DNA of 64,000 bases. Source: Minisyncoccota bacterium. GTDB taxonomy: Bacteria > Patescibacteriota > Minisyncoccia > Phycocordibacterales > UBA12079. The stretch spans positions 2,400-66,399 of the forward strand of contig JAGLSI010000001.1 in assembly GCA_023135835.1 (NCBI GenBank), given 5' to 3'. This document shows, piece by piece, positions 4,097-53,007 of this stretch. The position numbers and the translations under genes were made by a program. Position 1 is the first letter of the stretch. Each line of letters starts with the position of its first letter. The notes beneath the pieces are model-generated. The model saw nothing but the letters and a program-made list of their open reading frames with translations. It searched no databases and was not told where the DNA came from.

Positions 4097-4198
4097 GAAA
4101 GTTCATAAAGTCCATAAAGTTTATAAAGTGAAAAAATTGTTTTACAATTTTTTAAAAAACTTTTAACTTTTAACTTTATAAACTTTTAACTAAAAGTT
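4097..4198 (+). repeat. intergenic inverted-repeat leader element copy A (GTTCATAAAGTCCATAAAGT...central hairpin...ACTTTATAAACTTTTAAC) ending at rplK AUG
   Basis: one of seven similar tripartite elements in the window. Confidence 0.7.
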
Positions 4199-5419: not shown

Positions 5420-6279
5420 TTATCTTGAATTAAGATAACCTCAATATTAAAAGCATTAAAAATATTTTCTGCATCTAAGACAGAATAACCCTCTGAATAA
5501 TAAACCTTTTTAATCCCTGCACCTGCTATTAATTTTGCGCAGGTTGGGCATGGAAAGGTTGTTACATAAATTGATGCCCCGTCTAAAGATATACCTTCTT
5601 TAGCTGCATAACTAATCAAACTTGCTTCAGAGTGAATTGCTGTAGATAAATCGTATCTTTCTCCTGCATCAAAATTACTTCTTGGGTCTCCGTAAATATC
5701 CATACTAAAATCTGTTGGAACATGTTTGTTATATCCTGATAAGATAACCTTATTATCTTTAACGATAACTGAACCAACTTGCCGCCACCAATCAGAGCTT
5801 AATTTTTTTTGTTTTAAAGCTTCGCCCATCATTGTTTGATGGAATTTCTCAATAGTTATTTTCCTATTAGGGTGAACTTCTGTTTCTTGTAGGGTGATAG
5901 GTTTATCCCAGCGTAAAAAAACATTTTCAAAGCTTATGTTTTTATTATCTTTAAAATACTTTTTTTGAATTTCTTTTGATACAGCTTCGTCTGGAAAGAT
6001 TATTTCAAAATTTTCTTCTTTTTTAATTTCTTCTAAATTGTTTTTATCCAAAATATTAACATTTTCAAAAATATTAAGTGATTTAATTGCTTTCTGCATA
6101 ACCATTTCATCCATTGTTCTTAAGTCTCTTTCAAAATATTTATAAATAGAAGATTCTATAAGTAAATTTTTATCAATTAGGTATATATTAGTAGGAAATT
6201 TTTTAAATAATTTAATATAACCTGCATGCAGAACAGGGACAAAAGCAATTAAAATTTGTTTTGTTTTATTAGTATTCAT
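5416..6279 (-). CDS. dCMP deaminase (ComEB-like) with ~140-aa N-terminal extension of unknown function
   Basis: C-terminal HSEASLISYAAKEG...PCPTCAKLIAGAGI zinc-binding cytidine/dCMP deaminase motifs. Confidence 0.8.
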   Translation of the reverse strand: MNTNKTKQILIAFVPVLHAGYIKLFKKFPTNIYLIDKNLLIESSIYKYFERDLRTMDEMVMQKAIKSLNIFENVNILDKNNLEEIKKEENFEIIFPDEAVSKEIQKKYFKDNKNISFENVFLRWDKPITLQETEVHPNRKITIEKFHQTMMGEALKQKKLSSDWWRQVGSVIVKDNKVILSGYNKHVPTDFSMDIYGDPRSNFDAGERYDLSTAIHSEASLISYAAKEGISLDGASIYVTTFPCPTCAKLIAGAGIKKVYYSEGYSVLDAENIFNAFNIEVILIQDN

Positions 6280-6866
6280 TAAATTCTATTAATAAAATCA
6301 TCAGTTAGTTTTTTGATTTCATCAGTTAATTTTTGAGCACCTTCAATCATTAATGTTCTAACACGAGCTGTTGTTGACGTAGTTGCTTGTGGTTCTAAAG
6401 CAATAACCTCTTTACAATATTTTTTTATTTGCTCTATACGACTTTTATTAAGATCTTTGGTTGTTTTAGACATAATATAGACATCAGGTTTTATTACCTT
6501 TCTAAGAGCATCTAGGTCATTTAAATTATTTTGCATTACTAATATATCTACAGAGCGTAAATGAGATACGATTCCAACTCTTTCTTTTTCAGGGACAACT
6601 GGACGGCTGGGACCTTTTCTTTTTTTAGTTAGTGCGTCTGATTCTACTCCCACAATAAGTATATCTCCGTAAGATTTTGCTTTTTCTAGATAAGCAGCAT
6701 GACCAATATGTAACAAATCCCATACTCCTTGAGTTAAGACTATGCGATAATTTGATTCTTTTAAAAGTTTAACTATTATTTCTAATTGACTCAAGTCTTT
6801 AATAAATCTTTTTTCTAAAGGAGTATTGTTATCTAAAATTTCTTTTATTGTTATCTGCTTAGGCAT
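6279..6866 (-). CDS. RfaE domain II-like cytidylyl/adenylyl-transferase (HxGH nucleotidyltransferase)
   Basis: GVWDLLHIGHAAYLEKAKSYGDILIVGVESDA...KRKGPSRPVVPEKER closely follows HldE C-domain/TagD pattern. Confidence 0.6.
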   Translation of the reverse strand: MPKQITIKEILDNNTPLEKRFIKDLSQLEIIVKLLKESNYRIVLTQGVWDLLHIGHAAYLEKAKSYGDILIVGVESDALTKKRKGPSRPVVPEKERVGIVSHLRSVDILVMQNNLNDLDALRKVIKPDVYIMSKTTKDLNKSRIEQIKKYCKEVIALEPQATTSTTARVRTLMIEGAQKLTDEIKKLTDDFINRI

Positions 6867-7025
6867 GATTATTTTTATTTTATTAATAATTAATATTGAT
6901 TATATGTGTTAGTCCTTTTTTTGCAATTATTGTAAATAGGATAACTTGTTGATAAATATATAAAAATACAGACCTTCGTAATTAAACACGAAGGTCTGGT
7001 TTTGAGATATAAATCCCAAGGGTTT

Positions 7026-28907: not shown

Positions 28908-29131
28908 AAATAAAATACTAAAAATGGGTGATTTTTTGTTATTAATATTTTTTATAGAGCTTCCTTTTGTTTGAAATTAAAGTTTTAATTAAAAAAGACT
29001 TGTTTTTTATAAAAATAAATAAGGTATTTTTAATTTTTAATATTAAATTACAATTTAAACCTTTATTTCCTTGCATTTATAGCCCTGTTATTATAAAATA
29101 ATAGAGTTATATTTCGGTGTATTTACACAAG

Positions 29132-29140
29132 TTATCCACA
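29132..29140 (+). promoter_or_regulatory. perfect DnaA box TTATCCACA, 9 bp upstream of a TTGCAA-16-TATAAT promoter
   Basis: exact consensus 9-mer. Confidence 0.45.
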
Positions 29141-29148
29141 AAGTTTCT

Positions 29149-29176
29149 TTGCAAGAAGAGCTATACGAGATATAAT
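29149..29176 (+). promoter_or_regulatory. sigma-70-like promoter TTGCAA-16-TATAAT
   Basis: near-consensus hexamers, 480 bp upstream of surface-protein gene. Confidence 0.45.
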
Positions 29177-29371
29177 TTTATCAACAAATTCTTCGTCAAA
29201 AAACGAAGAGATTATTTTGTTAAAGTTTTTGTACTTTGAAAAATAGTTGAATTATAAAATTTAATTTCTTTAGATAAAGAAAAAGAAGTTAGGTTTTATA
29301 ATTCAATTTATAAAGAACTCAAAAAACAAATGAATGCACCGTTCTATATTTGGTCGTAAATCTAGTCGGTG

Positions 29372-29659: not shown

Positions 29660-32600
29660 ATGAGTATATTTAAACTTAAGGACACTGCGGTAATGAAAGT
29701 TATCTCAGTTTTCGCAGGTAGTGCTATGGCTCTTACTCTTGTGTTTGGTGGTGCAGTTGCTCCAGCTCAAGCTCAAACAGTAGAAGAACTTACAGCACAA
29801 ATAAATTCTTTGCTAGCAATGATTACATCTTTGCAAGCTCAATTAACAACAATCGGAGGAGGTACTGTATCAGGAGTATCTTATAGCTTCACAACAAACC
29901 TTTCACAAGGAGATAGTGGGGCAGACGTTTTGAATCTTCAAAAAGTTCTTAACATGAGTGCAGACACTCAGGTTGCAGTAACAGGAGTAGGTTCAGCAGG
30001 ATTGGAGACAGAATATTTTGGTTCTTTGACTAAAACAGCTGTAATTAAATTCCAGAACAAATACGCTTCTGAAATTTTGACACCAGTTGGATTAACAGCA
30101 GGAACAGGATATGTTGGTCCTTCAACAAGAGCTAAATTGAACACAATGACAGCTCCAGTTGTACCAGTAACTCCAATTGACCCAACAACACCAGTTGTAG
30201 TACCTACAGGAACAGGATTAACTGTTTCAGCAGGAGCACAACCTACAGCTAATTTAGCTGCTGGAGGTGCAGCAAGAGTACCTTTCACAAAAGTAGTACT
30301 TACAGCTAGCGCTGATGGAGCTGTTGTAGTTGACTCTATTTTAGTAGAGAGAACAGGTTTGTCACAAGACGCTGCGTTCGCAGGAATCGTTCTTTTGGAC
30401 GAAGATGGAACACAACTTGGGATTGCAAAAACTTTGAACTCATTACATCAAGCAACTGTTGGAGAAGCCTTCACAGTTAATGCGGGAACTTCAAAGACAA
30501 TTACAATCGCAGCTAACATGACTACTAAAACATTGATGGCTGATTACACAGGGCAAGTTGGTTCATTGACAGTAGTAGGAGTAAATACTTCAGCTACAGT
30601 TAACGGAGCTCTTCCAATTGTAGGAACAAGTCATACAATGAACTCTTCTCTAACAATTGGAACAGTTTCAGTTGCAAGAGGAATAAATGATCCAAATACA
30701 GCTGCTACAAAAGAAGTTGGAGTATCAGATTATACTTTCGCTTCAGTTAAGATAACAGCTGGTTCAGCAGAAAAGGTTAGAATTCATTCTTTGAGATGGA
30801 ATCAATCAGGTTCAGCTTCAGCAGCAGATTTAGAAAATCTAAAAACTTATGTTGACGGAACAGCTTATGATATTACAGTTTCAGCTGATGGAAAATATTA
30901 CACAGCTGACTTTGGAAGTGGAATTGTGATTGACAAAGGTCTTTCAAAAGAAATTTCAATCAAAGGTGATATCGTAGGAGGATCTGGAAGAAATATCGTA
31001 TTTGATATTTATAAATCAACTGATTTATATGTAACAGGAGAAACTTACGCATACGGAATTACACCACCAGCAGGAAGTGGAACTGCAGCTACAACTGGCT
31101 CAGATTTTCTTGCAACAACACCGTGGTATGATAACTGTCATGTAACAGTTTCAGACGGAACTCTAACAGTTTCTAAAGCGACTTCAGTAGAATCACAAAA
31201 TGTTGCTGAGGTTGTAGCTAATCAAGTTCTTGGAGGATTTGATGTAGAAGTTAAAGGAGAAGCCGTTTCAGTAGCTAGTCTTGTATTTACAGGAACTATC
31301 GCTGGAGCAACAGGAGGAGTTGGAACAGATATTGATAATGTTACTTTGATAGACGCTAATGGTTCAGTAGTTGCTGGTCCAGTAGATGCTACAGGAGCTG
31401 CATTAACTGCAACTGTTACATTCTCAGATACAGTAACATTCCCAATTGGAACAGGAACTTATACATTGAAAGGTCAATTAGCGAGTGCGTTCGTTAATGA
31501 TCAAACACTTGTATTTGAAACTGATCCTGATGATAACTGGACAACAGTTACAGGACAAACAACAGGAAATGCTATTGTTCCTGCACCAACATCAGCTGTT
31601 ACTTCAAATACAATGACAATGAAAGCTGGTTCAGCTGTAATTAGTACATCTGCAAGCCCGGTAGCACAAAACATTGTAGCTGGAGCACAAAGCTTTGTAT
31701 TTGCTAATTTCCAATTTGATGCAACAGCATCAGGTGAAGATGTTAGATTTACATCACTTGTGTTATATAACACAGCTAGTGCTGAATCAGAATATCAAAC
31801 AGGATGTCAATTATTTGATGGGGATACTGCTTTGAACACTGGTTCAAATAAGAAAGATATTGCAGCAGATGAAGCAACATCTCAAACATTCACATTAGAT
31901 AGTGGTGGAGTGACAATTCCAAAAGGAACATTAAAGACTATTGCTTTAAAATGTAACCTTTCAGCTTCAGCAGTTGCTCAAACTTACTTGTGGAAGATGT
32001 CAGCAGAACAATCAGGAACAGGTCTTGACTCTGGAACAACTATCACAATTGCAGCAGCTAATGTGACTGGAGATGGTCAATTGATGTCATCTACTGAAAA
32101 AGGAACACTTACAGTTACTGAACAATCAGGTGCTTACACAATTGCAGCGGCTGGTACTACAGATGTAACTCTAGGTTCATTGAAATTCACAGGAACAAAT
32201 GAATCAATTGCATTGAAGAAATTAGCTCTTCAACTAACAGATGCTTCAAGTACACCTTCAGATTTAGTTAAAGTAACTTTGTGGGATGGAGCAACAAAAG
32301 TTGGTGAAACTATCTTCACAGGTACAAACAATAATGCAACATCAACTTTGTCAGGAAGTTTCATAATTCCTAAAGACGGAACTAAGATTCTAACACTTAA
32401 AGGTGATTTAGCAGAAATTGGTACATCTAAGGTTGGAACTCAAGGAGCATTATTGATCGTTAATTACGATGATGATGACCCTACAGGAACACAAGGTGTA
32501 GGTGATCAATCAGGTACAACTATTAGCAGAACTTCTGCTTCAACAGATTCAACATTTGATGGAGTAAGAGTATTTAGGGCTTACCCTGAAATGGCTAAGA

Positions 32601-33232
32601 TTGATATCTCAGGATCATTAACACCTGGAACTACTGATCTTTACAGATTTAGCGTAACAGCTAAAGATAAAGATGGAGTAAGTGAAGGGGTTGGTATTTA
32701 CAAGTTCACACTTAACTTAGCAACATCATCAGATAATGCTACAACAGGTTCAACTACAGTTACAAATGTAAAAGTGTATGCTTACACTGATTCAGCATTT
32801 TCAACAACAGTTGATCAATCAGCAGATGGTACTGCTTACACAAGTGGACAAGTAGTAGCAACAGTTCCACAACCATTAGGAACAACAGCAGGAGTTGATA
32901 ATGAATTATTATTGAGTTCAGCTCTACAAATCCCAGCAGGTCAAACTTATTACTTTAAAGTAGTAGGAACAACCAGCATCGTTTCTGGAACAGGAACAGA
33001 CGCTAATAACTGGGTTAAATCTTACATCGCTGGAGATTCAGCATACGCTGTAAACAGTGCAAGATTAATGGAATTAGCTGATACAGTAGATAGTGATACA
33101 AATGATGCTTTCATTTGGTCACCATATGCAACAACTACTTCCGTAACAACTACTCATTATGACTGGACAAACGGATATAAGATTTACGGTTTGCCAGCAG
33201 ATGGTATGGACTCAGAAACTGTTAACCAATAA
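29660..33232 (+). CDS. S-layer-like large surface protein with signal peptide and PG-binding-like module; probable start 29693
   Basis: signal peptide MKVISVFAGSAMALTLVFGGAVAPAQA, coiled segment, PG_binding_1-like GDSGADVLNLQKVLN...FQNKY, ~900 aa Thr/Gly/Ser/Val-rich repeats. Confidence 0.7.
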   Translation: MSIFKLKDTAVMKVISVFAGSAMALTLVFGGAVAPAQAQTVEELTAQINSLLAMITSLQAQLTTIGGGTVSGVSYSFTTNLSQGDSGADVLNLQKVLNMSADTQVAVTGVGSAGLETEYFGSLTKTAVIKFQNKYASEILTPVGLTAGTGYVGPSTRAKLNTMTAPVVPVTPIDPTTPVVVPTGTGLTVSAGAQPTANLAAGGAARVPFTKVVLTASADGAVVVDSILVERTGLSQDAAFAGIVLLDEDGTQLGIAKTLNSLHQATVGEAFTVNAGTSKTITIAANMTTKTLMADYTGQVGSLTVVGVNTSATVNGALPIVGTSHTMNSSLTIGTVSVARGINDPNTAATKEVGVSDYTFASVKITAGSAEKVRIHSLRWNQSGSASAADLENLKTYVDGTAYDITVSADGKYYTADFGSGIVIDKGLSKEISIKGDIVGGSGRNIVFDIYKSTDLYVTGETYAYGITPPAGSGTAATTGSDFLATTPWYDNCHVTVSDGTLTVSKATSVESQNVAEVVANQVLGGFDVEVKGEAVSVASLVFTGTIAGATGGVGTDIDNVTLIDANGSVVAGPVDATGAALTATVTFSDTVTFPIGTGTYTLKGQLASAFVNDQTLVFETDPDDNWTTVTGQTTGNAIVPAPTSAVTSNTMTMKAGSAVISTSASPVAQNIVAGAQSFVFANFQFDATASGEDVRFTSLVLYNTASAESEYQTGCQLFDGDTALNTGSNKKDIAADEATSQTFTLDSGGVTIPKGTLKTIALKCNLSASAVAQTYLWKMSAEQSGTGLDSGTTITIAAANVTGDGQLMSSTEKGTLTVTEQSGAYTIAAAGTTDVTLGSLKFTGTNESIALKKLALQLTDASSTPSDLVKVTLWDGATKVGETIFTGTNNNATSTLSGSFIIPKDGTKILTLKGDLAEIGTSKVGTQGALLIVNYDDDDPTGTQGVGDQSGTTISRTSASTDSTFDGVRVFRAYPEMAKIDISGSLTPGTTDLYRFSVTAKDKDGVSEGVGIYKFTLNLATSSDNATTGSTTVTNVKVYAYTDSAFSTTVDQSADGTAYTSGQVVATVPQPLGTTAGVDNELLLSSALQIPAGQTYYFKVVGTTSIVSGTGTDANNWVKSYIAGDSAYAVNSARLMELADTVDSDTNDAFIWSPYATTTSVTTTHYDWTNGYKIYGLPADGMDSETVNQ

Positions 33233-33384: not shown

Positions 33385-33513
33385 TATGTTATCAAAATCC
33401 TTGGATATCGGATGTCCAAGGATTTTCAATGGGCTCAAGTCGTTGATTCGTTGAAGTATTTTATAGCTTAATAATAGCGCTCCAAGCGCTACTATTATGT
33501 TGAATAAGGAAAG

Positions 33514-33640
33514 GAAGTCCGACCTCTTAGCGTGTATACCAGTAACCTTTAGCTATTTTCTTTTGTTTTGCTATTACTGAAGTCGGTCTTCTTAATAATC
33601 CAGCAGCCCATCGTTAACGAAGTCAGACTTCTTCTGACAG
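33514..33640 (+). repeat. structured element core GAAGTCCGACCTCTTAGCGTGTATACCAGTAA ... ATTACTGAAGTCGG (copy 2)
   Basis: ~85% identical to core at 29411-29442 and 29473-29491. Confidence 0.45.
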
Positions 33641-33649
33641 CAAACAATT

Positions 33650-33658
33650 TATCCACAA
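33650..33658 (+). promoter_or_regulatory. perfect DnaA box TTATCCACA, 16 bp upstream of TTGACT-16-TATTAT promoter (33675-33702)
   Basis: exact consensus 9-mer. Confidence 0.45.
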
Positions 33659-33853
33659 TTTGTTTAAAAACTCTTGACTTTTTTATTCACTTTGCTATTA
33701 TATAGAAAGTACTTGAATCTTGGCTTGCCAATATTTAGGTACTATGAAAAGAGTCATTATTCCTTCGGGGGTTCTGGCTTTTTTCATTGTCAAAATTCAC
33801 TTATTTAATAGTAGCGCTTGGAGCGCTGTTACTAAAATTCAGATAATATTTAC

Positions 33854-34040: not shown

Positions 34041-34727
34041 ATGCAAAATAAAAATTTACAAATAGGTTTAATTACAGGTGTATTATTAGTAATTTTGGTT
34101 TTTTATGTTTATCAAGATTTATCTATTAAAGATGATGGTATAGTAGCAACAACAACTGGTCAGGTAGTAAATTTATCTGATGATTTAAATACTGCAGGAA
34201 ATGATAATTTGATAATTAAGGAGATTAAAGATGACAATATTCAAAACACAAATGTTCTTATAATGCCTAACCTAGATAGAGAAATAGAGTTTTTAGAGAA
34301 CTTTCCCGAAGAAGCTAGGCAAATCATGATTGATAGAATAAATACAGTAGTGCAGGATATAAAAGATAAACCAGGTTCTTATGACGATTGGATCTCTTTA
34401 GGATTGCAGAGGAAAATAATAGAGGACTATGAGGGGGTTGAATTAGCTTGGGAGTATGCAAAGTACTTAGAACCAGATAGATTCCTTGCTTGGAGTAATT
34501 TAGGTGATTTAAATGCATATTATTTAAGTAATAATATAAAAGCAGAGGAAAATTATATTAAAGCTATAGAATTAAACACTCATCAAATACAAACATATAT
34601 TAAAATTGTAGAGTTTTATAAAGAATTCTTAAACGATACAGAAAAAGCTATTTCTATATTAGAAAAGGGGATAGAAGTAAATCCTAATTCTCAAGAATTA
34701 AAAGACCTCCTATCTACCCTAAATTAG
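34041..34727 (+). CDS. N-terminally anchored protein with TPR-like C-terminal helices
   Basis: TM LQIGLITGVLLVILVFYVY; AWSNLGDLNAYYLSNNIKAEENYIKAIELN TPR-like repeats. Confidence 0.5.
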   Translation: MQNKNLQIGLITGVLLVILVFYVYQDLSIKDDGIVATTTGQVVNLSDDLNTAGNDNLIIKEIKDDNIQNTNVLIMPNLDREIEFLENFPEEARQIMIDRINTVVQDIKDKPGSYDDWISLGLQRKIIEDYEGVELAWEYAKYLEPDRFLAWSNLGDLNAYYLSNNIKAEENYIKAIELNTHQIQTYIKIVEFYKEFLNDTEKAISILEKGIEVNPNSQELKDLLSTLN

Positions 34728-34755
34728 TCGCGCTCGGAGCGCGACTAATCTTTAG

Positions 34756-34764
34756 TTATCCACA
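34756..34764 (+). promoter_or_regulatory. perfect DnaA box TTATCCACA upstream of TATAAT at 34797
   Basis: exact consensus 9-mer. Confidence 0.4.
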
Positions 34765-34812
34765 AGTTATCAAGGTTTTTGGGGGATATTTAAGGGTATA
34801 ATATAGCTATGA

Positions 34813-34913
34813 ATCCCGTTAGAGATTTGATAAAAATAGACAAAACGGGAATGAGAAATTAATAATTTAAATAATAGGTAATTTATTAAAAGTAAATTAT
34901 CTCTAACGGGATG
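34813..34913 (+). promoter_or_regulatory. conserved leader stem ATCCCGTTAGAGAT / ATCTCTAACGGGAT (perfect complement) overlapping AUG at 34911
   Basis: third and most perfect copy of the secE-type leader. Confidence 0.5.
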
Positions 34914-35054
34914 AATAAGACATCTTTTAAGTTTATAAGTGGTTTTGTGTTGATTTTAGTCGTTTCTTTAGGGGTTTTAGTCTATTTTAGTACTGACAGA
35001 GATATAGAAAAAGATATTATTCCAGCAGAAAACTTAGCAGCAGAACAAATTTAA
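34911..35054 (+). CDS. small N-terminally anchored protein (47 aa), not in ORF track
   Basis: ATG placed exactly as in the other two leader copies; TM FISGFVLILVVSLGVLVYF. Confidence 0.35.
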   Translation: MNKTSFKFISGFVLILVVSLGVLVYFSTDRDIEKDIIPAENLAAEQI

Positions 35055-35545: not shown

Positions 35546-35806
35546 TTGATACATGAGTTAATTATTTACTTTTTATTAAATATTATGAATAAATTACATA
35601 AAAGAGAAAAATTTAAAAGGTTAGCAACTTCTAGAACAATGGATGTTTTAAAAAGATTGCAGGTTCTTTCTAATTGTTCTAATCGTAGTGCTTATGATTA
35701 TAACGAAGAAGATATAAATAAAATATTTTTAACAATTGATAAGGCGGTAAAAGATTCTAAGTCGAAATTTCATTACCCTAAAGAAAAAATTAATTTTAAA
35801 TTATAA
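35546..35806 (+). CDS. hypothetical small basic protein, first gene of cassette (alt start 35585)
   Basis: 86-aa ORF, no recognisable motif. Confidence 0.35.
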   Translation: MIHELIIYFLLNIMNKLHKREKFKRLATSRTMDVLKRLQVLSNCSNRSAYDYNEEDINKIFLTIDKAVKDSKSKFHYPKEKINFKL

Positions 35807-35810
35807 TATT

Positions 35811-37508
35811 ATGTCTATACAAGGAAAAATATCTCCTAGAATTATTCAGTCTATATCAACATTATATAATGATACTAATCGTGTAATTCTTGAATTCATT
35901 GATAACTCAATAGATAGTGCTGAAGAATACTTTGATTCTTCTAACAATGGTTATATAAGACCGATTAAAATTATTTTAGAGATAGATGGAAAAAATAATA
36001 AAGATGGGGTTGTCAGCATTTCCGATAATTGTAAAGGTATGTTTAACATTGAAAAGATAGTCCAAAACATAGGTAATTCTGATAAAAAAGCACAGCCATG
36101 GACGAATGGGCAATTTGGTTATGGAATGTGTTCTTTTATTGCTTGTTGTAGTGAATTAAAAGTTGTTTCTAGGTTTGAAAAAGGAAAGATTTTTGAAATA
36201 AATATTTTAAAGGATCATTTTTTAGTTGATGATCAAAAAGATTTTCTTTTTTCTGATCCTATTATAAATAGTAATTTTGAATATGATACTGGGACTAAGG
36301 TAGTATTAAAAATGTTTGGTAAAAGTGATTGGAAAGATATAGACATTAAAGAGATCCAAGTTGAAATAGAAAAGCATTTTGAATTGTTACTAAATAGAAC
36401 TAATTTAGAAATTAAATTAATTTCAAATGGGAATGAGTCTATCTGTAAACCTTTCGATTATTCTTTGCATGAGGGAAGAGAGATAAATGAATATTTGGAA
36501 AATTCATTTAATTCACTTCTTTGTATTGATAAACCAATTCACTTGTTTATAAAAGTAACCGAAGGAAAAGATGTTAATAAAAGACCTATTTTTATTGTTA
36601 AAGGGAGAAGAATTGCTGAAATAAAAGATATTAAAGCTTTTAAGTCAAAAAATAAAAGTGATATTTGGAATCATCCTAATATAACTGGATATATAGATTT
36701 GGGGAAATCCATAGAACCTGATATATCAAGAATAAATGGTTTTAGCCCCCAATACAAAGATAAGATGAATATTATATTTAATTGGTTAATATCAAAAGAA
36801 TCAGATATTTTAGATTTAATTAAAGAAGATAATGAAAGTACTCAAGAAAAGCATTATCAACAGTTAGAAGATATTTTAAGCAAAGCTTTATCAAAAATCG
36901 CTCGGATAGATTCTATGAATTTTAGAACCGACATTATTTCTGGAAAAGAACTTATTCTAGAAAAAGGTGCTATTGGTAGTGGTATAGGAATTTCTGCTCC
37001 ACTCCCTGGGTCTGGTGAGCTTGGCGGTGAGGGAGGAGGAGGCTCTGATTTTCTTGAAGGAGATAATCCTGATGATCAACTTGGTGGAAATAAAAACTTA
37101 GCCAAAGAAAGTGATAGTCTTTTTGATGATAAAGAACCAGAGGGAAAAAAGAGAAGAAAAAGTGGTTTTAATATCAAAATTTCTGATCTAGAACCCAATG
37201 TTGATATAAACACAGAAAAACAAATTAAATCTCGTTTAATTGGTGATACTATTGAGATTTTTAAAAAACATCCTGAATTTGAAAAAAGAGTTGGGCATTT
37301 TCGTGGTGGAAGGCCGAAGATAACTCAAAGGTTAATAACTTATTTAGCTGGGGAAATCACGGTTCATTATAAAGATAGGTTTTATTCAAAAACAGGACAA
37401 CCAGAATATAATATAAAAATGTTTGAGAGTTTAGTTGAATCAATTTATCTTTTTGAGGATTTATTAAGGGATTTTGTTGAAAAAGATTTATCATCATGGA
37501 ACAAATAA
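35811..37508 (+). CDS. GHKL-superfamily ATPase (MutL/MORC/GyrB-type Bergerat fold) with long C-terminal region of unknown function
   Basis: N-box ILEFIDNSIDSAEE, G1 ISDNCKGM, G2 TNGQFGYGM within first 130 aa; Gly-rich linker GSGELGGEGGGGSD. Confidence 0.75.
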   Translation: MSIQGKISPRIIQSISTLYNDTNRVILEFIDNSIDSAEEYFDSSNNGYIRPIKIILEIDGKNNKDGVVSISDNCKGMFNIEKIVQNIGNSDKKAQPWTNGQFGYGMCSFIACCSELKVVSRFEKGKIFEINILKDHFLVDDQKDFLFSDPIINSNFEYDTGTKVVLKMFGKSDWKDIDIKEIQVEIEKHFELLLNRTNLEIKLISNGNESICKPFDYSLHEGREINEYLENSFNSLLCIDKPIHLFIKVTEGKDVNKRPIFIVKGRRIAEIKDIKAFKSKNKSDIWNHPNITGYIDLGKSIEPDISRINGFSPQYKDKMNIIFNWLISKESDILDLIKEDNESTQEKHYQQLEDILSKALSKIARIDSMNFRTDIISGKELILEKGAIGSGIGISAPLPGSGELGGEGGGGSDFLEGDNPDDQLGGNKNLAKESDSLFDDKEPEGKKRRKSGFNIKISDLEPNVDINTEKQIKSRLIGDTIEIFKKHPEFEKRVGHFRGGRPKITQRLITYLAGEITVHYKDRFYSKTGQPEYNIKMFESLVESIYLFEDLLRDFVEKDLSSWNK

Positions 37509-38380
37509 ATTTACAAAAACTTATAAAACAGATTTCACCTCTTTATAATTCTTATAAAGAGTCTAAGGGTAATATTAATGGAACAGAAGCATTATTTATA
37601 ATGTGGGAAATAGGAGAACTTTTGAAGAAAAAAATTGAAGAGTTTGGTATCGCTCCTCATAATTTATATAGAAAGATATATGGAAAAGCTGAAGGAAAAG
37701 AAGATATCATTCAAAGGAGCTATATTACGAGAGAGTTTTTAGGGAGAGCTTATCGTATAAGAAATATCTTTGAAAATAAAAATGATATTGAAAAAGATTT
37801 TCCTAATTTGAAAAAATTTATTTTGTTTAGAGAAGCAATGCCCTTTTTTGATAATAAAAAATATATGTTTAAAGGAAGAGATAGAGAAGATTTATTAACT
37901 ATTCTAAACAGTAACGAATCCTCAGATCTTATTTTTAAAAGAATTAAATTGTTACAAAAAGAAAAGATTGGAATAAAGAATTCAAGAAATCAAAAATTAA
38001 TTGAGTTACAGCCACAAAAAGAAATTTTTATAACTTTTTATAATTATGTATTTAATTTAATAAAAGATAACAATTACAGAGATACCAGAGAAAAAGTTTT
38101 GCCTTTAATAAATAATTCATTAATTAGCAAACTTTCTTCAAATACTAGCGCTTTAGCCCAAGAAGGACTAGTATACAAAAATATAGATGAAGAAATCTTT
38201 GATGATTATTGGATTTCTTACAGTAAACTATTGAAAGGTTTTTCTGAGCAAATGGACGCAAAAGAAAGAAGGAGATTTAGGCGATTAATATCTCCTGAAC
38301 GTATAATAAAATTAGCTGATATGTTACAGGTAATAACCTCTGAAAAATTATTTGTAAATTTTAAAAATCAGTTAAATTAA
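37496..38380 (+). CDS. hypothetical protein, overlaps upstream stop by 13 nt
   Basis: 294-aa ORF, 13-nt overlap with GHKL gene; no known motif. Confidence 0.5.
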   Translation: MEQINLQKLIKQISPLYNSYKESKGNINGTEALFIMWEIGELLKKKIEEFGIAPHNLYRKIYGKAEGKEDIIQRSYITREFLGRAYRIRNIFENKNDIEKDFPNLKKFILFREAMPFFDNKKYMFKGRDREDLLTILNSNESSDLIFKRIKLLQKEKIGIKNSRNQKLIELQPQKEIFITFYNYVFNLIKDNNYRDTREKVLPLINNSLISKLSSNTSALAQEGLVYKNIDEEIFDDYWISYSKLLKGFSEQMDAKERRRFRRLISPERIIKLADMLQVITSEKLFVNFKNQLN

Positions 38381-38388
38381 TTTAAGTC

Positions 38389-39936
38389 ATGAATTTTGAT
38401 GTTGATTCTAATATTTTTGATCAAAAAGAAGACCATTTAAAAACTAGGATAGAATCCCTAGATTTTTCTAGTAAGACAAAAATTTTGTTAAAAAAAGACA
38501 ATATATTAACTGTAAGAGGTTTATTAAAACGAACAGAAAAAGAATTAAAAAATAAATATAACTTAAGCAGATCAAATATAGACATAACTTTAAGAAAATT
38601 AAATTTTTTAAACTCAAAAATAAAAAATAAAGAAAAACAAAATAAAGGAGAAATATCAGATATTTCTGATGAATTAGATTTAAAAAATTGTTTTGAAGAA
38701 ATTTATATAGATAAATCGGAAGATGTTTTAGAAGTTTTTTCTAATTGGTTTGGTTTTGATGAAAAAATAATAAAGAGCAAGTCTAGAAAAAGTGAGATTG
38801 TAGATGTACGAGATTTAATAATTTATTTTTTACGTGAATATGGAGAGTTATCATTTCCTTATATAGGAGAATTATTAGGGGGTCGTGATCATACCACCAT
38901 CATTTATGCTTATAACAAAATAAAGAAAAAAATAAAAAATATAAGAGATTTTGAAAAAAAGTTTTTAAGTCTTATCAAAGAAAGTAACAAAATAAAAGAA
39001 AAAAAAGAATATATAAAAAGGATTCTAATTCCAATAATAGAAGTTTTGGTTTCTGAAAATAATTCTAAAAAAGGGGTTAAAATGGTTTCAGAAAGAAATA
39101 ATTATATTCTTCAATTATATAGAGAAGGATTAATTCTTGATAAAATAGGTAAAAAGATGGGAATTTCTAGGGAAAGAGTTCGTCAAATAGTTAAAAAAAC
39201 TATAGTACAATTAGCTATAAATAAATCAGTTTCTACTGGAGCAGAACTAAATTTTGATTTTCTTATTGAAGATGAGAAAAGGAAAAGAAAGGAAACTCAA
39301 CTTATTGCTAATCCTCCAAAAATAAAGACTATAAAAAAGAGATATTGGAGCAGAGATCATAGAAAATGTAAAATGTGCGAAAGAATTATTTATAAGCATG
39401 TTAGTAATGGTTTATGTGAAGAATGTACAGGTAGTTTTAGAGGAAAAAATAGAGAAAATATTATTTTGTTACATGAAAATAAATGTGATTTATGTGATGT
39501 CTTAAGAGAAGAAGCTAAAACACTTTATAAAAGAGATTTGTATATTATGAGAAATAAAATTGTGTGTTGTAGAGATTGCTTTTTAAAATTAACAGGAAAA
39601 ACTTTAGGTTCTTATAAAAATTATGAATGGAGTAGATTTTATCCCCAATGTAAAAAATGTGGGACAAAAGATATTCCTCATGCAAAATTAGGTCTTTGTG
39701 AAGAATGTTGCCTGTTTTTATCAGATAGCCAAAGAGAAAAAATTATTCAAGATAATAAGAGTGTGTGCTGTGTGTGTGGTATAAGCAGAGATGAAGCAAA
39801 AAGTAAATTTAAAAGAGATTTACATATCTGGAAAAACAAAAAAACATTTTGTCGAAAATGCCATCTTGTAGAGACAGGTAAAGTTCTTAGCGATTATAGA
39901 AAAAATAATTGGAAAAAGTTTTATAAAAATTATTAA
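38389..39936 (+). CDS. multi-DNA-binding-domain protein: RNAP alpha-CTD-like HhH + DnaA domain-IV HTH + sigma-70 region-4 HTH + tandem Zn ribbons
   Basis: IESLDFSSKTKILLKKDNILTVRGLLKRTEKEL (alpha-CTD pattern); FPYIGELLGGRDHTTIIYAYNKI (DnaA domain IV signature); LDKIGKKMGISRERVRQI (sigma r4.2); C-terminal A-B-A'-B' CxxC...CxxC repeats. Confidence 0.7.
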   Translation: MNFDVDSNIFDQKEDHLKTRIESLDFSSKTKILLKKDNILTVRGLLKRTEKELKNKYNLSRSNIDITLRKLNFLNSKIKNKEKQNKGEISDISDELDLKNCFEEIYIDKSEDVLEVFSNWFGFDEKIIKSKSRKSEIVDVRDLIIYFLREYGELSFPYIGELLGGRDHTTIIYAYNKIKKKIKNIRDFEKKFLSLIKESNKIKEKKEYIKRILIPIIEVLVSENNSKKGVKMVSERNNYILQLYREGLILDKIGKKMGISRERVRQIVKKTIVQLAINKSVSTGAELNFDFLIEDEKRKRKETQLIANPPKIKTIKKRYWSRDHRKCKMCERIIYKHVSNGLCEECTGSFRGKNRENIILLHENKCDLCDVLREEAKTLYKRDLYIMRNKIVCCRDCFLKLTGKTLGSYKNYEWSRFYPQCKKCGTKDIPHAKLGLCEECCLFLSDSQREKIIQDNKSVCCVCGISRDEAKSKFKRDLHIWKNKKTFCRKCHLVETGKVLSDYRKNNWKKFYKNY

Positions 39937-39957
39937 TTTATTATAATAACAAAAAAT

Positions 39958-40254
39958 ATGATGATATTTGTTTATGTGATAATCGGAGTGGTAATTGGGT
40001 ACTTTGTTTTTGGTGGGTCTATGAATAAGAATGCTAAGAAAAACGAAGTTTTGGAGATTTTGGATGAAAAAGATAAGAAGATTCTGGCTTTGATTGAAGA
40101 AAAAGAGAAAGTTACTAATAATGATATAGAGAAATTGTTAGGGATAGCAGATAGTACTGCAACTAAATATTTACAACAATTGGAAGATAAAGGAAAAATT
40201 ATACAAAGAGGAAAAACTGGGAAATATACTTATTACGAAAAGGTTTCAAAGTAG
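39958..40254 (+). CDS. small membrane-anchored winged-HTH protein (paralog of 51833-52111)
   Basis: TM MMIFVYVIIGVVIGYFVF then DIEKLLGIADSTATKYLQQLEDKGKIIQRGKTGKYTYY; ~65% identity to second copy. Confidence 0.6.
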   Translation: MMIFVYVIIGVVIGYFVFGGSMNKNAKKNEVLEILDEKDKKILALIEEKEKVTNNDIEKLLGIADSTATKYLQQLEDKGKIIQRGKTGKYTYYEKVSK

Positions 40255-43445: not shown

Positions 43446-43559
43446 CGAGTCAAAAGTTTATAAAGTTCATAAAGTCTATAAAATAAAATTACAAAGTAAT
43501 TTTTTTAATGACAATAAACTTTTAACTTTTAACATTACAAACTTTAAACTAATATAATT
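43446..43559 (+). repeat. inverted-repeat leader element copy D
   Basis: GTCAAAAGTTTATAAAGTTCATAAAGTCTATAAAAT ... aaaattacaaagtaatttt ... AAACTTTTAACTTTTAACATTACAAACTTTAAACTAA. Confidence 0.7.
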
Positions 43560-44087
43560 ATGATTGAAGAAAAAAAAGATGATGTAGTGGAAGAGGTTGA
43601 AGCTACTGAAGCTCCAGTTGAAGCAGAGGCTCCTGTTGAAGAAGTTAAGGAAGAAAAGAAAGCAGAAGCTCCAGCTGAAGAAGCAAAAGAAGATGAAGGG
43701 GAAGAAGTAGAAGTTCCCAAAAAATTCAAAGCATTAGTAGATGGAATTGAAGAAATGTCAGTTCTTGATTTGCATGAATTAGTAAAGTTATTAGAAAAGA
43801 AATTTGGTGTTTCTGCTGCTGCTGTAGCTGTGGCTGGAGGATCAGCAGGCGGAGGTGATGATGCTGGTGAAGAAAAAACTTCATTTGATGTTGAGCTTAC
43901 ATCTGCAGGAGACCAAAAAATTGCTGTGATCAAAGCAGTTAAAGGTGCTTTAGGTCTAGGACTTAAGGAGGCAAAAGAATTGGTTGACGCTGCTCCAGCT
44001 TCATTAAAGAAAGATATGAAAAAGGAAGAAGCAGAAGCTTTAAAGAAAGATATTGAAGAAGCAGGAGGAAAAGTAGAGTTGAAATAA
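43560..44087 (+). CDS. rplL: 50S ribosomal protein L7/L12 with ~55-aa acidic Glu/Ala/Pro-rich N-terminal extension
   Basis: [27 protein letters not shown] and C-terminal [24 protein letters not shown]; no in-frame alternative ATG downstream of 43560. Confidence 0.85.
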
Positions 44088-45266: not shown

Positions 45267-45275
45267 TTATCCACA
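45267..45275 (+). promoter_or_regulatory. perfect DnaA box TTATCCACA upstream of 45457 gene
   Basis: exact consensus 9-mer; TATAGACATATAAT -10-like 20 bp downstream. Confidence 0.4.
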
Positions 45276-45456
45276 GTTTTTGTATATTTTTATAGACATA
45301 TAATGATATTATATAAATATGGTATTTATTAATACTAAAATAAAGGTCGTTAAGTCATAAAACCAATGATTTTTTGGTGGTTGATTATTGACCATTCAAT
45401 TAAGTTTTGGGGATATGATGATAATTCATTATTAGTTTTAATTTTTTAGAAAAAAT

Positions 45457-46140
45457 ATGATATTACAAACATGGAGTGAAGTATTGTCACAATCTTTTCA
45501 AAGTCTTTGGATTGGAGTAATGGGCTTTGTTCCAAACTTAATAATCGCAATAATAATTTTTATTATTGGGTGGGTTGTTGGAGTTTTATTTGGGAGAGTA
45601 GTTTCTCAGATAATTCATTCATTAGGTATAGACAAACTTTTGAGAAGTGCTAGTGTTGAAAAAACATTAAATAAAGCAGGTTTCAATTTAAACGCCGGTA
45701 ATTTTTTCGGTGCTTTAGTGAAATGGTTTATTATTGTAGTTTTTGCCGTAGCTGCCTTTGATGTATTAGGGCTTGACCAAGTAAATTTATTTTTACAACA
45801 AGTAGTTCTACTATATCTACCTAGAGTAATTGCAGCAGCAGCTATTCTTTTGATTGCTGTTATTATTGCAGATGCTACTGAGAATCTTGTAATAGGTTCC
45901 GCAAAAGCAGTTGGTGCTAGAAAATCTCAATTTGGATTTTTAGGTACATCTGTTAAGTGGGCAATTTGGGTATTCGCTGGATTGATGGCTCTTTATCAAT
46001 TAGGAGTTGCATCAGCTTTTATTCAAACTTTGTTTACAGGATTAATCGTTGCTATTTCTCTATCATTGGGATTAGCTTTCGGATTAGGAGGAAAGACTGC
46101 CGCGTCAGATGTGATTGAAGACTTAAGAAAGAAAATGTAA
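45457..46140 (+). CDS. membrane protein with repeated 'conserved TM helix' (MscS-associated type) segments
   Basis: two similar TM hairpins; terminator 46160-46198. Confidence 0.55.
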   Translation: MILQTWSEVLSQSFQSLWIGVMGFVPNLIIAIIIFIIGWVVGVLFGRVVSQIIHSLGIDKLLRSASVEKTLNKAGFNLNAGNFFGALVKWFIIVVFAVAAFDVLGLDQVNLFLQQVVLLYLPRVIAAAAILLIAVIIADATENLVIGSAKAVGARKSQFGFLGTSVKWAIWVFAGLMALYQLGVASAFIQTLFTGLIVAISLSLGLAFGLGGKTAASDVIEDLRKKM

Positions 46141-50225: not shown

Positions 50226-51218
50226 ATGCAAAAAGAAAATATTAAAACTAAAATAATAGTTCAAAACTTGTTTTCTTTAGGGTCTGATAAGAAGAAAGAT
50301 AAAACAGGCTTTACTTTTATTGACTTATTTGCGGGGATAGGAGGGACTCGTATAGGGTTTGAAAAAGCTGGAGGTGAATGTGTTTTTACGTCTGAATGGG
50401 ATAAATATTGTCAAGAAACATACAAAGCTAATTTTGGAGAAGTTCCATATGGAGATATAACAAAAATTAAAGAATATGAAATACCTAATTTTGATGTTTT
50501 AGTAGCAGGATTTCCTTGCCAACCATTTAGTTCTATAGGTAAAAGAGAGGGTTTTATGCACACTACTCAAGGAACTTTATTTTACGATGTTTTAAGAATC
50601 ATAAATCATAAAAAGAACAAAGCATTTTTATTGGAAAATGTTCCAGGGTTACTAACTCATGATAATGGAAATACTTTTAAGATTATATTAGATTCTTTGA
50701 AAGAAGCAGGTTATAAGGTTTTTAGTAAAGTATTGGATGCTTCTAATTTCGGAGTTCCTCAAAAAAGAAAGAGAATTTATATAGTTGGTTTTAGAAAAGA
50801 TTTGTTTGAAGGTGAAGATTTTGTATTTCCTGAGGGAAATAATAAACAATCTTTTATAAACGAACACTTAGAAGATAATGCTTTAGGTTATTCTATTTCT
50901 AAACATTTACAAAAAAGTTATTTGTTTAAAAAAGATGATGGTAGACCAATAATAGTAGATAAAAATTCTAAAATTCAAACAAAAACATTAGTTTCTACTT
51001 ATCATAAAATTCAAAGGTTAACAGGAACTTTTGTTAAAGATGGAGAAACAGGAATTAGATTACTAACTGAAAATGAATGTAAAGCGATCATGGGTTTCCC
51101 AAAGGACTTTATTATTCCTGTGTCAAGAACTCAGATGTATAGACAAATGGGTAATTCAGTTGTTGTTCCAGTTATCGAAGCTGTAGCAAGAGAAATAGAA
51201 AACAAATTAAAATTATAA
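50226..51218 (+). CDS. DNA (cytosine-5)-methyltransferase (type II R-M modification subunit)
   Basis: motif I FIDLFAGIGGTRIGF, motif IV FPCQPFS, motif VI ENVPGL, motif VIII QKRKRIYIVG, motif X NSVVVPV. Confidence 0.9.
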   Translation: MQKENIKTKIIVQNLFSLGSDKKKDKTGFTFIDLFAGIGGTRIGFEKAGGECVFTSEWDKYCQETYKANFGEVPYGDITKIKEYEIPNFDVLVAGFPCQPFSSIGKREGFMHTTQGTLFYDVLRIINHKKNKAFLLENVPGLLTHDNGNTFKIILDSLKEAGYKVFSKVLDASNFGVPQKRKRIYIVGFRKDLFEGEDFVFPEGNNKQSFINEHLEDNALGYSISKHLQKSYLFKKDDGRPIIVDKNSKIQTKTLVSTYHKIQRLTGTFVKDGETGIRLLTENECKAIMGFPKDFIIPVSRTQMYRQMGNSVVVPVIEAVAREIENKLKL

Positions 51219-51231
51219 AATAGTTATTTTT

Positions 51232-51828
51232 ATGAAAAAACATAAAATCAAAAAAATAAGTCAAAATAGTTTATTGGTTGAATATTTTCAGAATAATCCC
51301 AAGCGAGCTATTTCCCATCCTGAGGTGGTGGATTGGGTTATAAAAGAATTTAAGAAAAGAACAGGTAAAATTTTCAGAGATCCTGATAGAGGAATAAGAA
51401 AATTATATCAAAAAGGTTATTTAGTAAAAATTAAAAAAGGTGTTTATAAATATGATCCGTCGTTAATAAAGAAAAAAGAATTACAAGATTTTACATCAGC
51501 TATCAAGAAAAAGATTTTTGAACGAGATAGTTTTAAATGTGTTATGTGTGGTAAAGGAGAAAAAGATGGAGTTGAGATACATGCTGATCATATAAAACCA
51601 AAGGACTTAGGGGGAAAAGCTACTTTAGAAAATGGACAAACTCTCTGCAGCGCTCATAACTTTTTGAAGAAAAATTTAAAACAAACTGAAACTGGTAAGA
51701 AAATGTTTATACGTTTGTATGAATTATCTAAAAAAACTAAAGATAAAAAGCTTATTAAATTTTGCACAGAAATATTAGAGGTTTTTGAAACAAATAATAT
51801 TAACGGACACATTGAATGGAATAAATAA
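51232..51828 (+). CDS. HNH-family type II restriction endonuclease (N-terminal winged-helix, C-terminal HNH)
   Basis: CVMCG...HADHIKPKDLGG...ENGQTLCSAHN HNH motif; 13 bp after MTase stop. Confidence 0.7.
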   Translation: MKKHKIKKISQNSLLVEYFQNNPKRAISHPEVVDWVIKEFKKRTGKIFRDPDRGIRKLYQKGYLVKIKKGVYKYDPSLIKKKELQDFTSAIKKKIFERDSFKCVMCGKGEKDGVEIHADHIKPKDLGGKATLENGQTLCSAHNFLKKNLKQTETGKKMFIRLYELSKKTKDKKLIKFCTEILEVFETNNINGHIEWNK

Positions 51829-51832
51829 TAAA

Positions 51833-52111
51833 ATGACAATAATTTATATAATAATAGGAATAGCGATAGGGTATTTCGTGACAGTGGCTTTTGTTGGTGC
51901 TGGAAATAAAAAGGTTGAGAAAGAGCTTGACCAAGATGAAAAGATTTTGAATTTAATTGCTGAAAAGGAGAGGGTTACGAATGGGGATATACAAAAATTA
52001 CTTAGTATTGCAGATAGTACAGCCACTAAATATCTTCAAGAGCTTGAAGATAAAGGAGAAATTAAACAACAAGGCAAAGCAGGACGCTTTGTCTATTATG
52101 AAAAAATTTAA
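51833..52111 (+). CDS. small membrane-anchored winged-HTH protein (paralog of 39958-40254); ORF-track start 51785 overlaps HNH gene
   Basis: TM MTIIYIIIGIAIGYFVTVAFVGAG then DIQKLLSIADSTATKYLQELEDKGEIKQQGKAGRFVYY. Confidence 0.55.
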   Translation: MTIIYIIIGIAIGYFVTVAFVGAGNKKVEKELDQDEKILNLIAEKERVTNGDIQKLLSIADSTATKYLQELEDKGEIKQQGKAGRFVYYEKI

Positions 52112-52498: not shown

Positions 52499-52611
52499 AG
52501 TAAACGAGTCAAAAGTCAAAAGCCCATAAAGTCTATAAAGTGAAAAATCGCAAAGCGATTTTTCCAAAAAAACTTTTGACTTTCGACTTTACAGACTTTA
52601 GACTAAATATT
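52499..52611 (+). repeat. inverted-repeat leader element copy F
   Basis: GTCAAAAGTCAAAAGCCCATAAAGTCTATAAAGT...gaaaaatcgcaaagcgattttt...GACTTTCGACTTTACAGACTTTAGACTAA. Confidence 0.7.
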
Positions 52612-53007
52612 ATGAATAGAGATATAATTTCAGAATTAATAATAGGTATTAAAAATGCCGGAAAAGCACAAAAAGAAACTGTACAGTTTCCTTATTCTAA
52701 TTTCAAAGCTAAGGTTGCTGAGGTATTAAAGAAGGAAGGTTTTATTGAATTTTCATCTAAAATTGGAAAAGCCCCTAAAAGAGTTTTAGAGGTTGGTATT
52801 TCTTATAAATCTAAAAATATTCCAAAAATAAAAGATGTTGAGAGAGTTTCTAAGCTTTCAAAAAGAATTTATTTAGGGAGTGATGATATCAAGAAAGTTA
52901 AAAATGGTTTTGGTAAGTTATTAATCTCAACTTCAAAAGGGGTAATGACTGGAGAGGAGGCTAAAAAAGAAGGACTGGGAGGAGAGCCTTTGTTTAAAAT
53001 TTGGTAA
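52612..53007 (+). CDS. rpsH: 30S ribosomal protein S8 (ORF-track start 52540 translates the repeat)
   Basis: MNRDIISELIIGIKNAGKAQKETV... typical S8. Confidence 0.9.
   Translation: MNRDIISELIIGIKNAGKAQKETVQFPYSNFKAKVAEVLKKEGFIEFSSKIGKAPKRVLEVGISYKSKNIPKIKDVERVSKLSKRIYLGSDDIKKVKNGFGKLLISTSKGVMTGEEAKKEGLGGEPLFKIW

Follow-up and report, generated by a model that had tools for sequence, protein, structure and literature searches.

The window, a stretch of 64,000 nt, comes from a metagenome-assembled genome of Candidatus Pacebacteria (Patescibacteria/CPR), and its sequence is also found on contig DAOWHO010000007.1 of GCA_030641385.1 and on an ENA scaffold. Its GC content is ~29%, and nearly all genes lie on the + strand. 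It contains four exact copies of TTATCCACA, the 9-mer that constitutes the universal DnaA consensus, at 29132-29140, 33649-33657, 34756-34764 and 45267-45275. Each lies on the + strand, between called ORFs; the - strand of the window has no exact copy. The initial annotation of this DNA had reported four exact DnaA boxes, intergenic and on the + strand, and this is borne out; the positions that it gave for three of them (29132, 34756 and 45267) are correct, and the other, 33650, is off by one. For comparison, an identical S19 protein, and homologues of the TPR protein encoded between boxes 2 and 3, led to relatives in at least five further lineages (TPR identity of 70, 63, 60, 59 and 51%). Individual lineages are referred to below by L numbers.

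Box loci and the genes downstream

Box 1 is found upstream of the promoter of a gene for a large secreted protein, which has a clear signal peptide and otherwise only a weak peptidoglycan-binding match. The initial annotation had called it an S-layer gene, a label that these two features do not establish.

29071..29099, + strand: promoter-like TTGCAT-17-TAAAAT, a putative promoter; block kept in L118 and L122
29132..29140, + strand: box 1, perfect TTATCCACA
29149..29176, + strand: promoter-like TTGCAA-16-TATAAT, 8 nt past box 1
29178..29186, + strand: one-mismatch box TTATCAACA, directly past the -10 hexamer, where transcription is expected to start
29660-33232: gene for the secreted 1190-aa protein, downstream of box 1

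Since the promoter-like pair at 29071-29099 lies upstream, box 1 would sit between two tandem promoters. The string AAGTTATCCACAAA at box 1 is invariant in the window, L118, L119 and L122, and the -10 hexamer of the downstream promoter, 30 nt from the end of the box, is kept in all four. At the L122 locus the upstream flank is rearranged and the spacer carries many changes, with the box unchanged. In the strain variant L119, the site orthologous to 29178 is a perfect TTATCCACA.

Box 2 precedes a putative small RNA.

33649..33657, + strand: box 2, perfect; kept in L118 (9747)
33674..33701, + strand: promoter-like TTGACT-16-TATTAT with a TG extension, 16 nt past box 2; both hexamers kept in L118
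33706..33790, + strand: RNA of ~85 nt with two hairpins and a terminal U run, the predicted product of the box 2 promoter

The distance from the end of box 2 to the -10 hexamer is 38 nt. In L118 the upstream flank is unalignable and the spacer has changed; the box, TTGACT, TATTAT and the next ~85 nt are kept. The RNA, with a minimum free energy of -34.9 kcal/mol (z = -7.2), differs from its L118 counterpart by only 2 substitutions, between flanks that have diverged. Rfam holds no family for it: the window gave no match at the gathering threshold, and the matches in 28.9-35.2 kb were at chance level only. The window also contains no tRNAs. Short direct repeats, GAAGTC(C/G)GA(C/T)CTCTTA, occur upstream of box 2 at 33513-33640, with more copies in L118.

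Box 3 heads an operon of two small-protein genes (47 aa and 87 aa). In the relatives, the corresponding operon encodes a 47-aa protein, a 184-aa protein and, further on, an LTD/beta-helix protein of 1300 aa.

34723..34749, + strand: terminator hairpin of the TPR gene, ending 6 nt before box 3
34756..34764, + strand: box 3, perfect
34767..34775, + strand: weak tandem partner TTATCAAGG, 2 bp past box 3
34797..34802, + strand: TATAAT, -10 hexamer of the box 3 promoter, 32 nt from the box end; kept in L118

This box is perfect in L118 (11572), L124 (4818) and L133 (1825) and has one mismatch in L132 (3812) and in L122, where its place is taken by TTATTCACA-AG-TTATCAACA. The layout of hairpin, six-nucleotide spacer (TTT[T/G]AG) and box is also seen in L118, L124, L132 and L133. 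In L118, the -10 hexamer is separated from the start codon by 6 nt (TATAAT-ATAGCC-ATG), which suggests that the box 3 transcript of that lineage is a leaderless mRNA. A MITE-like insertion of ~100 nt (34815-34916), with 12-nt inverted ends (CCCGTTAGAGAT) and a flanking ATGAAT direct repeat, separates the 47-aa ORF of the window from the box 3 promoter; it is absent in L118.

In four of the relatives, a gene for a Y1 transposase (IS200/IS605- or RAYT-like) is syntenic beside the TPR gene.

L118, 10846-11538: Y1 transposase gene
L124, 936-1625: Y1 transposase gene
L132, 1205-1924: Y1 transposase gene
L133, 1094-1789: Y1 transposase gene

At all four loci the gene is preceded by a box and a hairpin and followed by a hairpin, TTT[T/G]AG and a box; in L124, a 25-nt stretch, ACTAAGTGTTTTGAGTTATCCACAG, is found on both sides of it. 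The gene is absent at this locus in the window and in L122.

Box 4 lies upstream of a gene for an Msc-like membrane protein.

45267..45275, + strand: box 4, perfect
45299..45304, + strand: TATAAT, -10 hexamer of the box 4 promoter, 23 nt past the box
45457-46140: gene for the Msc-like 227-aa membrane protein

No conserved -35 hexamer was found for this promoter (the window's TTGTAT is TTATAT in L108). Box 4 is intact in L108-L111, where the mean column identity of the intergenic region is ~97%, compared with ~87% for the flanking alignment block. The same values are found for the 5' leader of the Msc-like gene (45305-45456), which folds no better than shuffled sequence (z = -1.3).

Taken over the window, promoter-like hexamers are present downstream of each box, as the initial annotation had claimed along with co-orientation: -35 hexamers lie 4-16 nt and -10 hexamers 23-38 nt past the boxes, and box and hexamers are conserved. 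A further site on the other strand is a candidate weak member of the set.

6936..6955, - strand: imperfect tandem boxes TTATCAACA-AG-TTATCCTAT, upstream of TTGCAA-16-TATAAT (6926-6899) and the - strand gene 6279-6866

Because this pair heads a - strand gene, the orientation of the boxes can be said to follow the gene and not the direction of replication.

Other intergenic elements are found in the window. The most recurrent intergenic 9-mer belongs to a repeated element with GTTCATAAAGTC(T), at 4101, 22943, 43465, 49434 and 52525; ~100 nt are similar among 4107-4193, 43453-43577 and 52501-52619, and the element lies mostly upstream of ribosomal-protein genes. Two families of GC-rich REP-like or terminator hairpins, one of the (A)GCGCTCCAAGCGC(T) type and one with AACCTGCCTTTGCCGGCAGGCAGG, are also intergenic (33475, 33812, 33850, 34723, 35061 and 35093; also 22967, 33941, 56328 and 58013). 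The ribosomal-protein operon itself is interrupted between L5 and S14 by three inserted genes (50226-52111), one for a C5 DNA methylase, one for an HNH nuclease and one for a winged-helix protein paralogous to the 98-aa protein described below; L108 and L109 lack them.

Frequency and conservation of the boxes

Whole-window dinucleotide shuffles contained a mean of 0.59 copies of TTATCCACA, and four copies were reached in 2 of 100 shuffles; a first-order Markov model gives a similar expectation for the window, 0.62 copies, with P(>=4) = 0.004. The window has a coding fraction of 85%, and for its 9,313 intergenic bases (15%) the same type of model predicts 0.056 copies, so that the four boxes observed there are beyond chance, as had been proposed (P(>=4) = 4e-7). 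Copies with one mismatch number 35, versus 18.5 expected from shuffles, and their intergenic share (5/31) equals the background proportion. Neither one- nor two-mismatch sites in the window show intergenic enrichment or a strand preference, so it is only the perfect word that carries the signal. Ranked by recurrence among the window's intergenic 9-mers with at least 3 G/C, TTATCCACA comes second. When the surroundings of the four boxes (±50-90 nt) were aligned for a larger repeat, nothing was common beyond the 9-mer, and the sites are therefore not copies of one repeat. We also inspected 19 kb of this genome flanking the window on both sides (83 kb in all) and found no further TTATCCACA there, so that a stretch of 16 kb holds all four boxes. 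They are at least 1.1 kb apart.

The boxes are kept in place across the relatives: box 1 in L118, L119 and L122, box 2 in L118, and box 4 in L108-L111, while the flanks have diverged. Together with the box 3 locus, this places the conserved sites in at least five related lineages, and we therefore regard them as real regulatory sites, in line with the earlier proposal that they resemble transcription-factor sites. The relatives have extra perfect boxes upstream of the Y1 transposase gene and of a gene for a 696-aa FG-GAP protein (143-aa in L132). By the consensus 9-mer, 11 promoter sites in the relatives are DnaA boxes in addition to the four of the window. All of the perfect intergenic boxes in the clade sample (15/15) are co-oriented with the downstream gene, and the three boxes found inside coding sequence are all antisense.

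Alignment of the clade boxes extends the consensus to ~14 nt, aG-TTATCCACA-R-tTT, with A at -2, G at -1, a purine at +1 and T at +3/+4. A second, weaker box follows 2 bp downstream in the same orientation at three sites, namely box 3, its L122 orthologue and the 6955-6936 pair. Boxes 1, 2 and 4 have no partner at 2-3 bp; the partner of box 1 is 46 nt away. The gap from the box to the -10 hexamer ranges from 22 to ~57 nt across the clade, and no clear rule for a fixed spacing or helical phase could be discerned. Because of this variation, the box is not a promoter element read by the polymerase.

The background set, 864 kb around dnaA at 53 other CPR loci, came from a profile search that returned only true dnaA loci. 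These encode canonical DnaA with perfect boxes adjoining it: of 21 perfect intergenic boxes, 18 lie next to dnaA, where an origin would be expected, which identifies TTATCCACA as the origin box of CPR, and three lie elsewhere, in ~780 kb. Promoter use of TTATCCACA is a speciality of the clade studied here. We found nothing relevant in the literature on DnaA boxes in Patescibacteria or CPR.

A DnaA domain IV protein and its cassette

The only DnaA-like stretch encoded in the window is within a fusion protein, and no dnaA gene is found in the 83 kb of this genome that were inspected.

38389-39936: gene for a 515-aa fusion protein with alpha-CTD-like, DnaA domain IV, sigma region 4 and zinc-ribbon parts
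35585-40254: cassette with genes for a 73-aa protein, a 565-aa GHKL/MORC-like ATPase, a 294-aa protein (weak EcoRV match), the 515-aa protein and a 98-aa winged-helix protein

The initial annotation had noted a DnaA-box-binding fold in the 515-aa protein, and Pfam supports this, with Bac_DnaA_C at residues 111-178 (E = 4e-19), RNA_pol_A_CTD at 12-62 and Sigma70_r4 at 242-275; repeated Cys-rich modules follow sigma region 4. When compared with domain IV of E. coli DnaA (1j1v), the base-contacting residues R399, P423, D433, H434 and T435 correspond to R133, P157, D167, H168 and T169, and these are, except for P157, invariant or nearly so in 29 family members. By these residues, the protein could plausibly read a DnaA box. 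It is not itself a DnaA: Bac_DnaA_C is the only DnaA domain present, Bac_DnaA/AAA is absent, and tblastn with CPR DnaA matches residues 365-427 only. A sigma-70 factor, which would pair region 4 with region 2 (the part that reads the -10 element and binds core polymerase), was likewise rejected, with Sigma70_r4 alone present and the NCBIfam sigma models far below their cut-offs.

The surrounding cassette has counterparts in distant genomes, where it consists of p73, a ~205-aa protein, a ~690-aa GHKL-like ATPase and the fusion protein. Identity of the 73-aa protein to its counterparts in distant Paceibacteria is 52-72%, and its gene always lies ~3 kb upstream of the fusion gene. BLASTP of the window's cassette genes against the relatives' ~205-aa and ~690-aa genes gave no match, and neither did Pfam for these two, the GHKL N-box motif being seen by eye only. 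In L136-L138 the cassette adjoins genes for a C5 methylase, a serine recombinase, CBASS, TIR and HEPN, and in one relative (P0074) a MORC-type ATPase is fused to sigma-4 and DnaA-IV domains. With such defence-type neighbours and this fusion, the cassette looks like an undescribed mobile or defence module. PADLOC returned generic winged-helix matches only for the cassette, and a literature search gave no description of the 515-aa protein family. A search of metagenome contigs with the zinc-ribbon part recovered 23 loci of the fusion family, with no box enrichment and no conserved box before the cassette.

Candidate binders and known DnaA systems

The sites are non-random, locked in orientation and kept by selection. 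They are conserved cis-regulatory sites of a Paceibacteria clade, and the likeliest binder would be DnaA itself acting as a transcription regulator, a reading to which we give slightly better than an even chance. The binder, the direction of regulation and any roadblock role, taken up below, are inferred. In the mechanism proposed, a single high-affinity DnaA box would mark the upstream edge of a sigma-70-type promoter, oriented with the downstream gene and often placed just 6 nt past the terminator hairpin of the preceding gene. DnaA would bind it through domain IV and regulate transcription by activation or repression. The genes under control would be those for cell-envelope proteins and a small RNA, and in relatives the Y1 transposase. 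At sites with a second box 2 bp away or, as for the 1190-aa gene, one lying over the transcription start, DnaA might bind as a pair or oligomer and so cover the promoter; a protein bound behind terminators could also stop read-through.

The initial annotation had offered the 515-aa protein as an alternative to DnaA. Its acting on the boxes as a promoter-specific regulator in place of DnaA would suit its domains (Bac_DnaA_C, Sigma70_r4 and RNA_pol_A_CTD) and its kept E. coli base-contact residues, as well as its location, since three boxes lie at most 10 kb upstream of its gene and box 3 heads a transcription unit that runs into it. However, the cassette (~35.3-40.5 kb) replaces the 184-aa and 1303-aa LTD genes of L108/L118, and L122, L124, L132 and L133 carry an LTD gene and no cassette at the locus; all of these lineages have kept boxes. 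Because the cassette is thus lineage-specific and absent at the locus from sister lineages that bear boxes, the 515-aa protein is disfavoured as the binder. Its closest homologue in a search of 5.8 billion proteins is only 44% identical, compared with 51-70% for relatives of the neighbouring TPR protein; the 26 loci around distant homologues (~235 kb) contain three perfect boxes, of which one is intergenic; and the conserved cassette is found in a defence-type neighbourhood. We therefore consider this protein an unlikely binder. An unrelated transcription factor specific to the clade, or an upstream promoter element read by the polymerase, could also use GTTATCCACA with no involvement of DnaA. 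The site set is indeed clade-specific, other CPR rarely having boxes away from dnaA; the orientation is strict and the position always upstream of the -10 hexamer; and the conserved flanks stretch the motif to ~14 nt. The conserved core nevertheless equals the DnaA consensus in 9/9 positions, with no enrichment of one-mismatch variants, and single asymmetric 9-mers would be typical of monomer binding of the domain-IV type. For an element read by the polymerase, the distance to the promoter (22 to ~57 nt) is too variable. Such a factor or element is doubtful, in our judgement.

The boxes could also serve in replication. An origin at this locus, which the initial annotation had already discounted, was rejected here too: each box stands alone, 1.1 kb or more from the next, the window has no dnaA gene, and its cumulative GC skew keeps climbing, the small local dips never becoming a sustained turn. 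With no box cluster and no skew turn, the locus is not an origin. A datA-type or DnaA-box-cluster titration locus was likewise rejected, no two perfect boxes being within 1 kb. Titration or replication control through these sites, with no role in transcription, has precedents in the scattered high-affinity boxes that titrate DnaA on the chromosome of E. coli (PMC12371093) and in the box clusters outside oriC that govern initiation in B. subtilis (PMC3245932), and four boxes do fall within 16 kb. Titration, however, needs no intergenic site, no orientation fixed to the gene and no placement at a promoter edge, all three of which are found at 15/15 sites; the boxes are single and unclustered; and the imperfect 6955-6936 site follows its - strand gene instead of replication. 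We judge this explanation distinctly unlikely. A role of the boxes as targets or ends for the Y1 transposase, with transposition spreading or keeping them, would be in keeping with the box-hairpin arrangements on both sides of its gene in L118, L124, L132 and L133 and with the ACTAAGTGTTTTGAGTTATCCACAG stretch that brackets it in L124. Yet the window and L122 keep boxes with no such gene at the locus, boxes 1, 2 and 4 have neither these hairpins nor a transposase in any lineage, and the hairpins vary among lineages where the box is constant. The four window sites, moreover, have only the box itself in common, and the gene is syntenic in four lineages, unlike an actively moving element. With the tie between hairpin and Y1 confined to the TPR-adjacent locus of four relatives, IS200/IS605 or REP/RAYT ends were rejected, and this origin of the boxes seems very improbable. 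Chance in an AT-rich window did produce four copies in the 2/100 whole-window shuffles, but against the intergenic expectation of 0.056 (P = 4e-7) and the retention of the boxes in place between diverged flanks it can practically be dismissed.

For regulation by DnaA, there is precedent, and the word itself is the DnaA consensus and serves at CPR origins. DnaA is an established activator and repressor of transcription (PMC8203912). In E. coli ChIP-seq it favours box pairs 2-3 bp apart, and two boxes are required at most of its targets (PMC11317965), a preference that the tandem box-AG-box pairs at box 3, at its L122 orthologue and at 6955-6936 fit. At the asnC terminator, a DnaA/box complex acts as a barrier to RNA polymerase (Schaefer and Messer 1988, 1989, as cited in PMC10950094). 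Against DnaA stand the three window sites (boxes 1, 2 and 4) that lack a closely spaced partner, the failure to find dnaA in the 83 kb of this genome, the rarity of promoter boxes in other CPR (the three intergenic ones away from dnaA in ~780 kb) and the DnaA domain IV paralogue encoded in the same window. With a box and its -10 hexamer anywhere from 22 to ~57 nt apart, no single activation geometry fits, and universal DnaA does not by itself explain a site set that is clade-specific.

A broader scenario can be put forward tentatively. This clade of ultra-small, probably host-attached Paceibacteria may have recruited DnaA or a domain IV paralogue to regulate a cell-surface programme comprising the secreted wall-associated protein, giant LTD adhesin-like proteins, the Msc-like channel and the small RNA. 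Single, orientation-locked, high-affinity boxes at terminator-promoter junctions might then couple envelope synthesis to the replication state and insulate neighbouring transcription units in a compact genome. Transcription control in CPR is almost uncharted, with few recognisable regulators, and a conserved, readily recognised operator at surface-protein, small-RNA and transposase genes gives a concrete, testable regulon and might connect replication status with envelope or host-attachment functions.

Several known systems can be compared with these findings. The 515-aa family (P0001-P0065) resembles DnaA in that its domain IV keeps the DNA-reading residues; unlike DnaA, it has no AAA+ domain and joins domain IV to alpha-CTD-like, sigma-4 and Cys-rich modules, and its gene shares a cassette with that for a GHKL/MORC-like ATPase, in defence-island settings. 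An undescribed protein family thus appears to reuse the DnaA-box reading head within a GHKL-ATPase cassette of the defence-island type. The window boxes have the same 9-mer word as oriC and the datA- or DARS-type clusters, but here the boxes are not clustered, dnaA or dnaN does not adjoin them, and neither a GC-skew turn nor an AT-rich unwinding element is present. The effect at the asnC terminator is reportedly orientation-dependent, going by the title of the 1989 paper by Schaefer and Messer. Like the box of that roadblock, several boxes of the clade are found right behind an intrinsic terminator, 6 nt past the hairpin and T run; unlike it, the window boxes also lie at the upstream edge of the next predicted promoter.

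The closest parallels would be the DnaA regulons. As at E. coli dnaA P1/P2 and nrdAB and in the regulons of B. subtilis and Caulobacter, consensus boxes occur here outside oriC and beside promoters. In the E. coli dnaA promoter region, a box lies between two tandem promoters, and box 1 would have the same placement. The 2-bp pairs match the E. coli ChIP-seq preference (PMC11317965). In contrast to the known regulons, the sites are mostly single perfect boxes with a strict orientation relative to the gene, and in place of genes for replication or nucleotide metabolism they would control those for envelope proteins, a small RNA and a transposase. The host is an uncultivated clade of Patescibacteria. 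The DnaA box for transcription control is a known kind of element; what is new here is the phylum, with unusual targets and an unusual layout.
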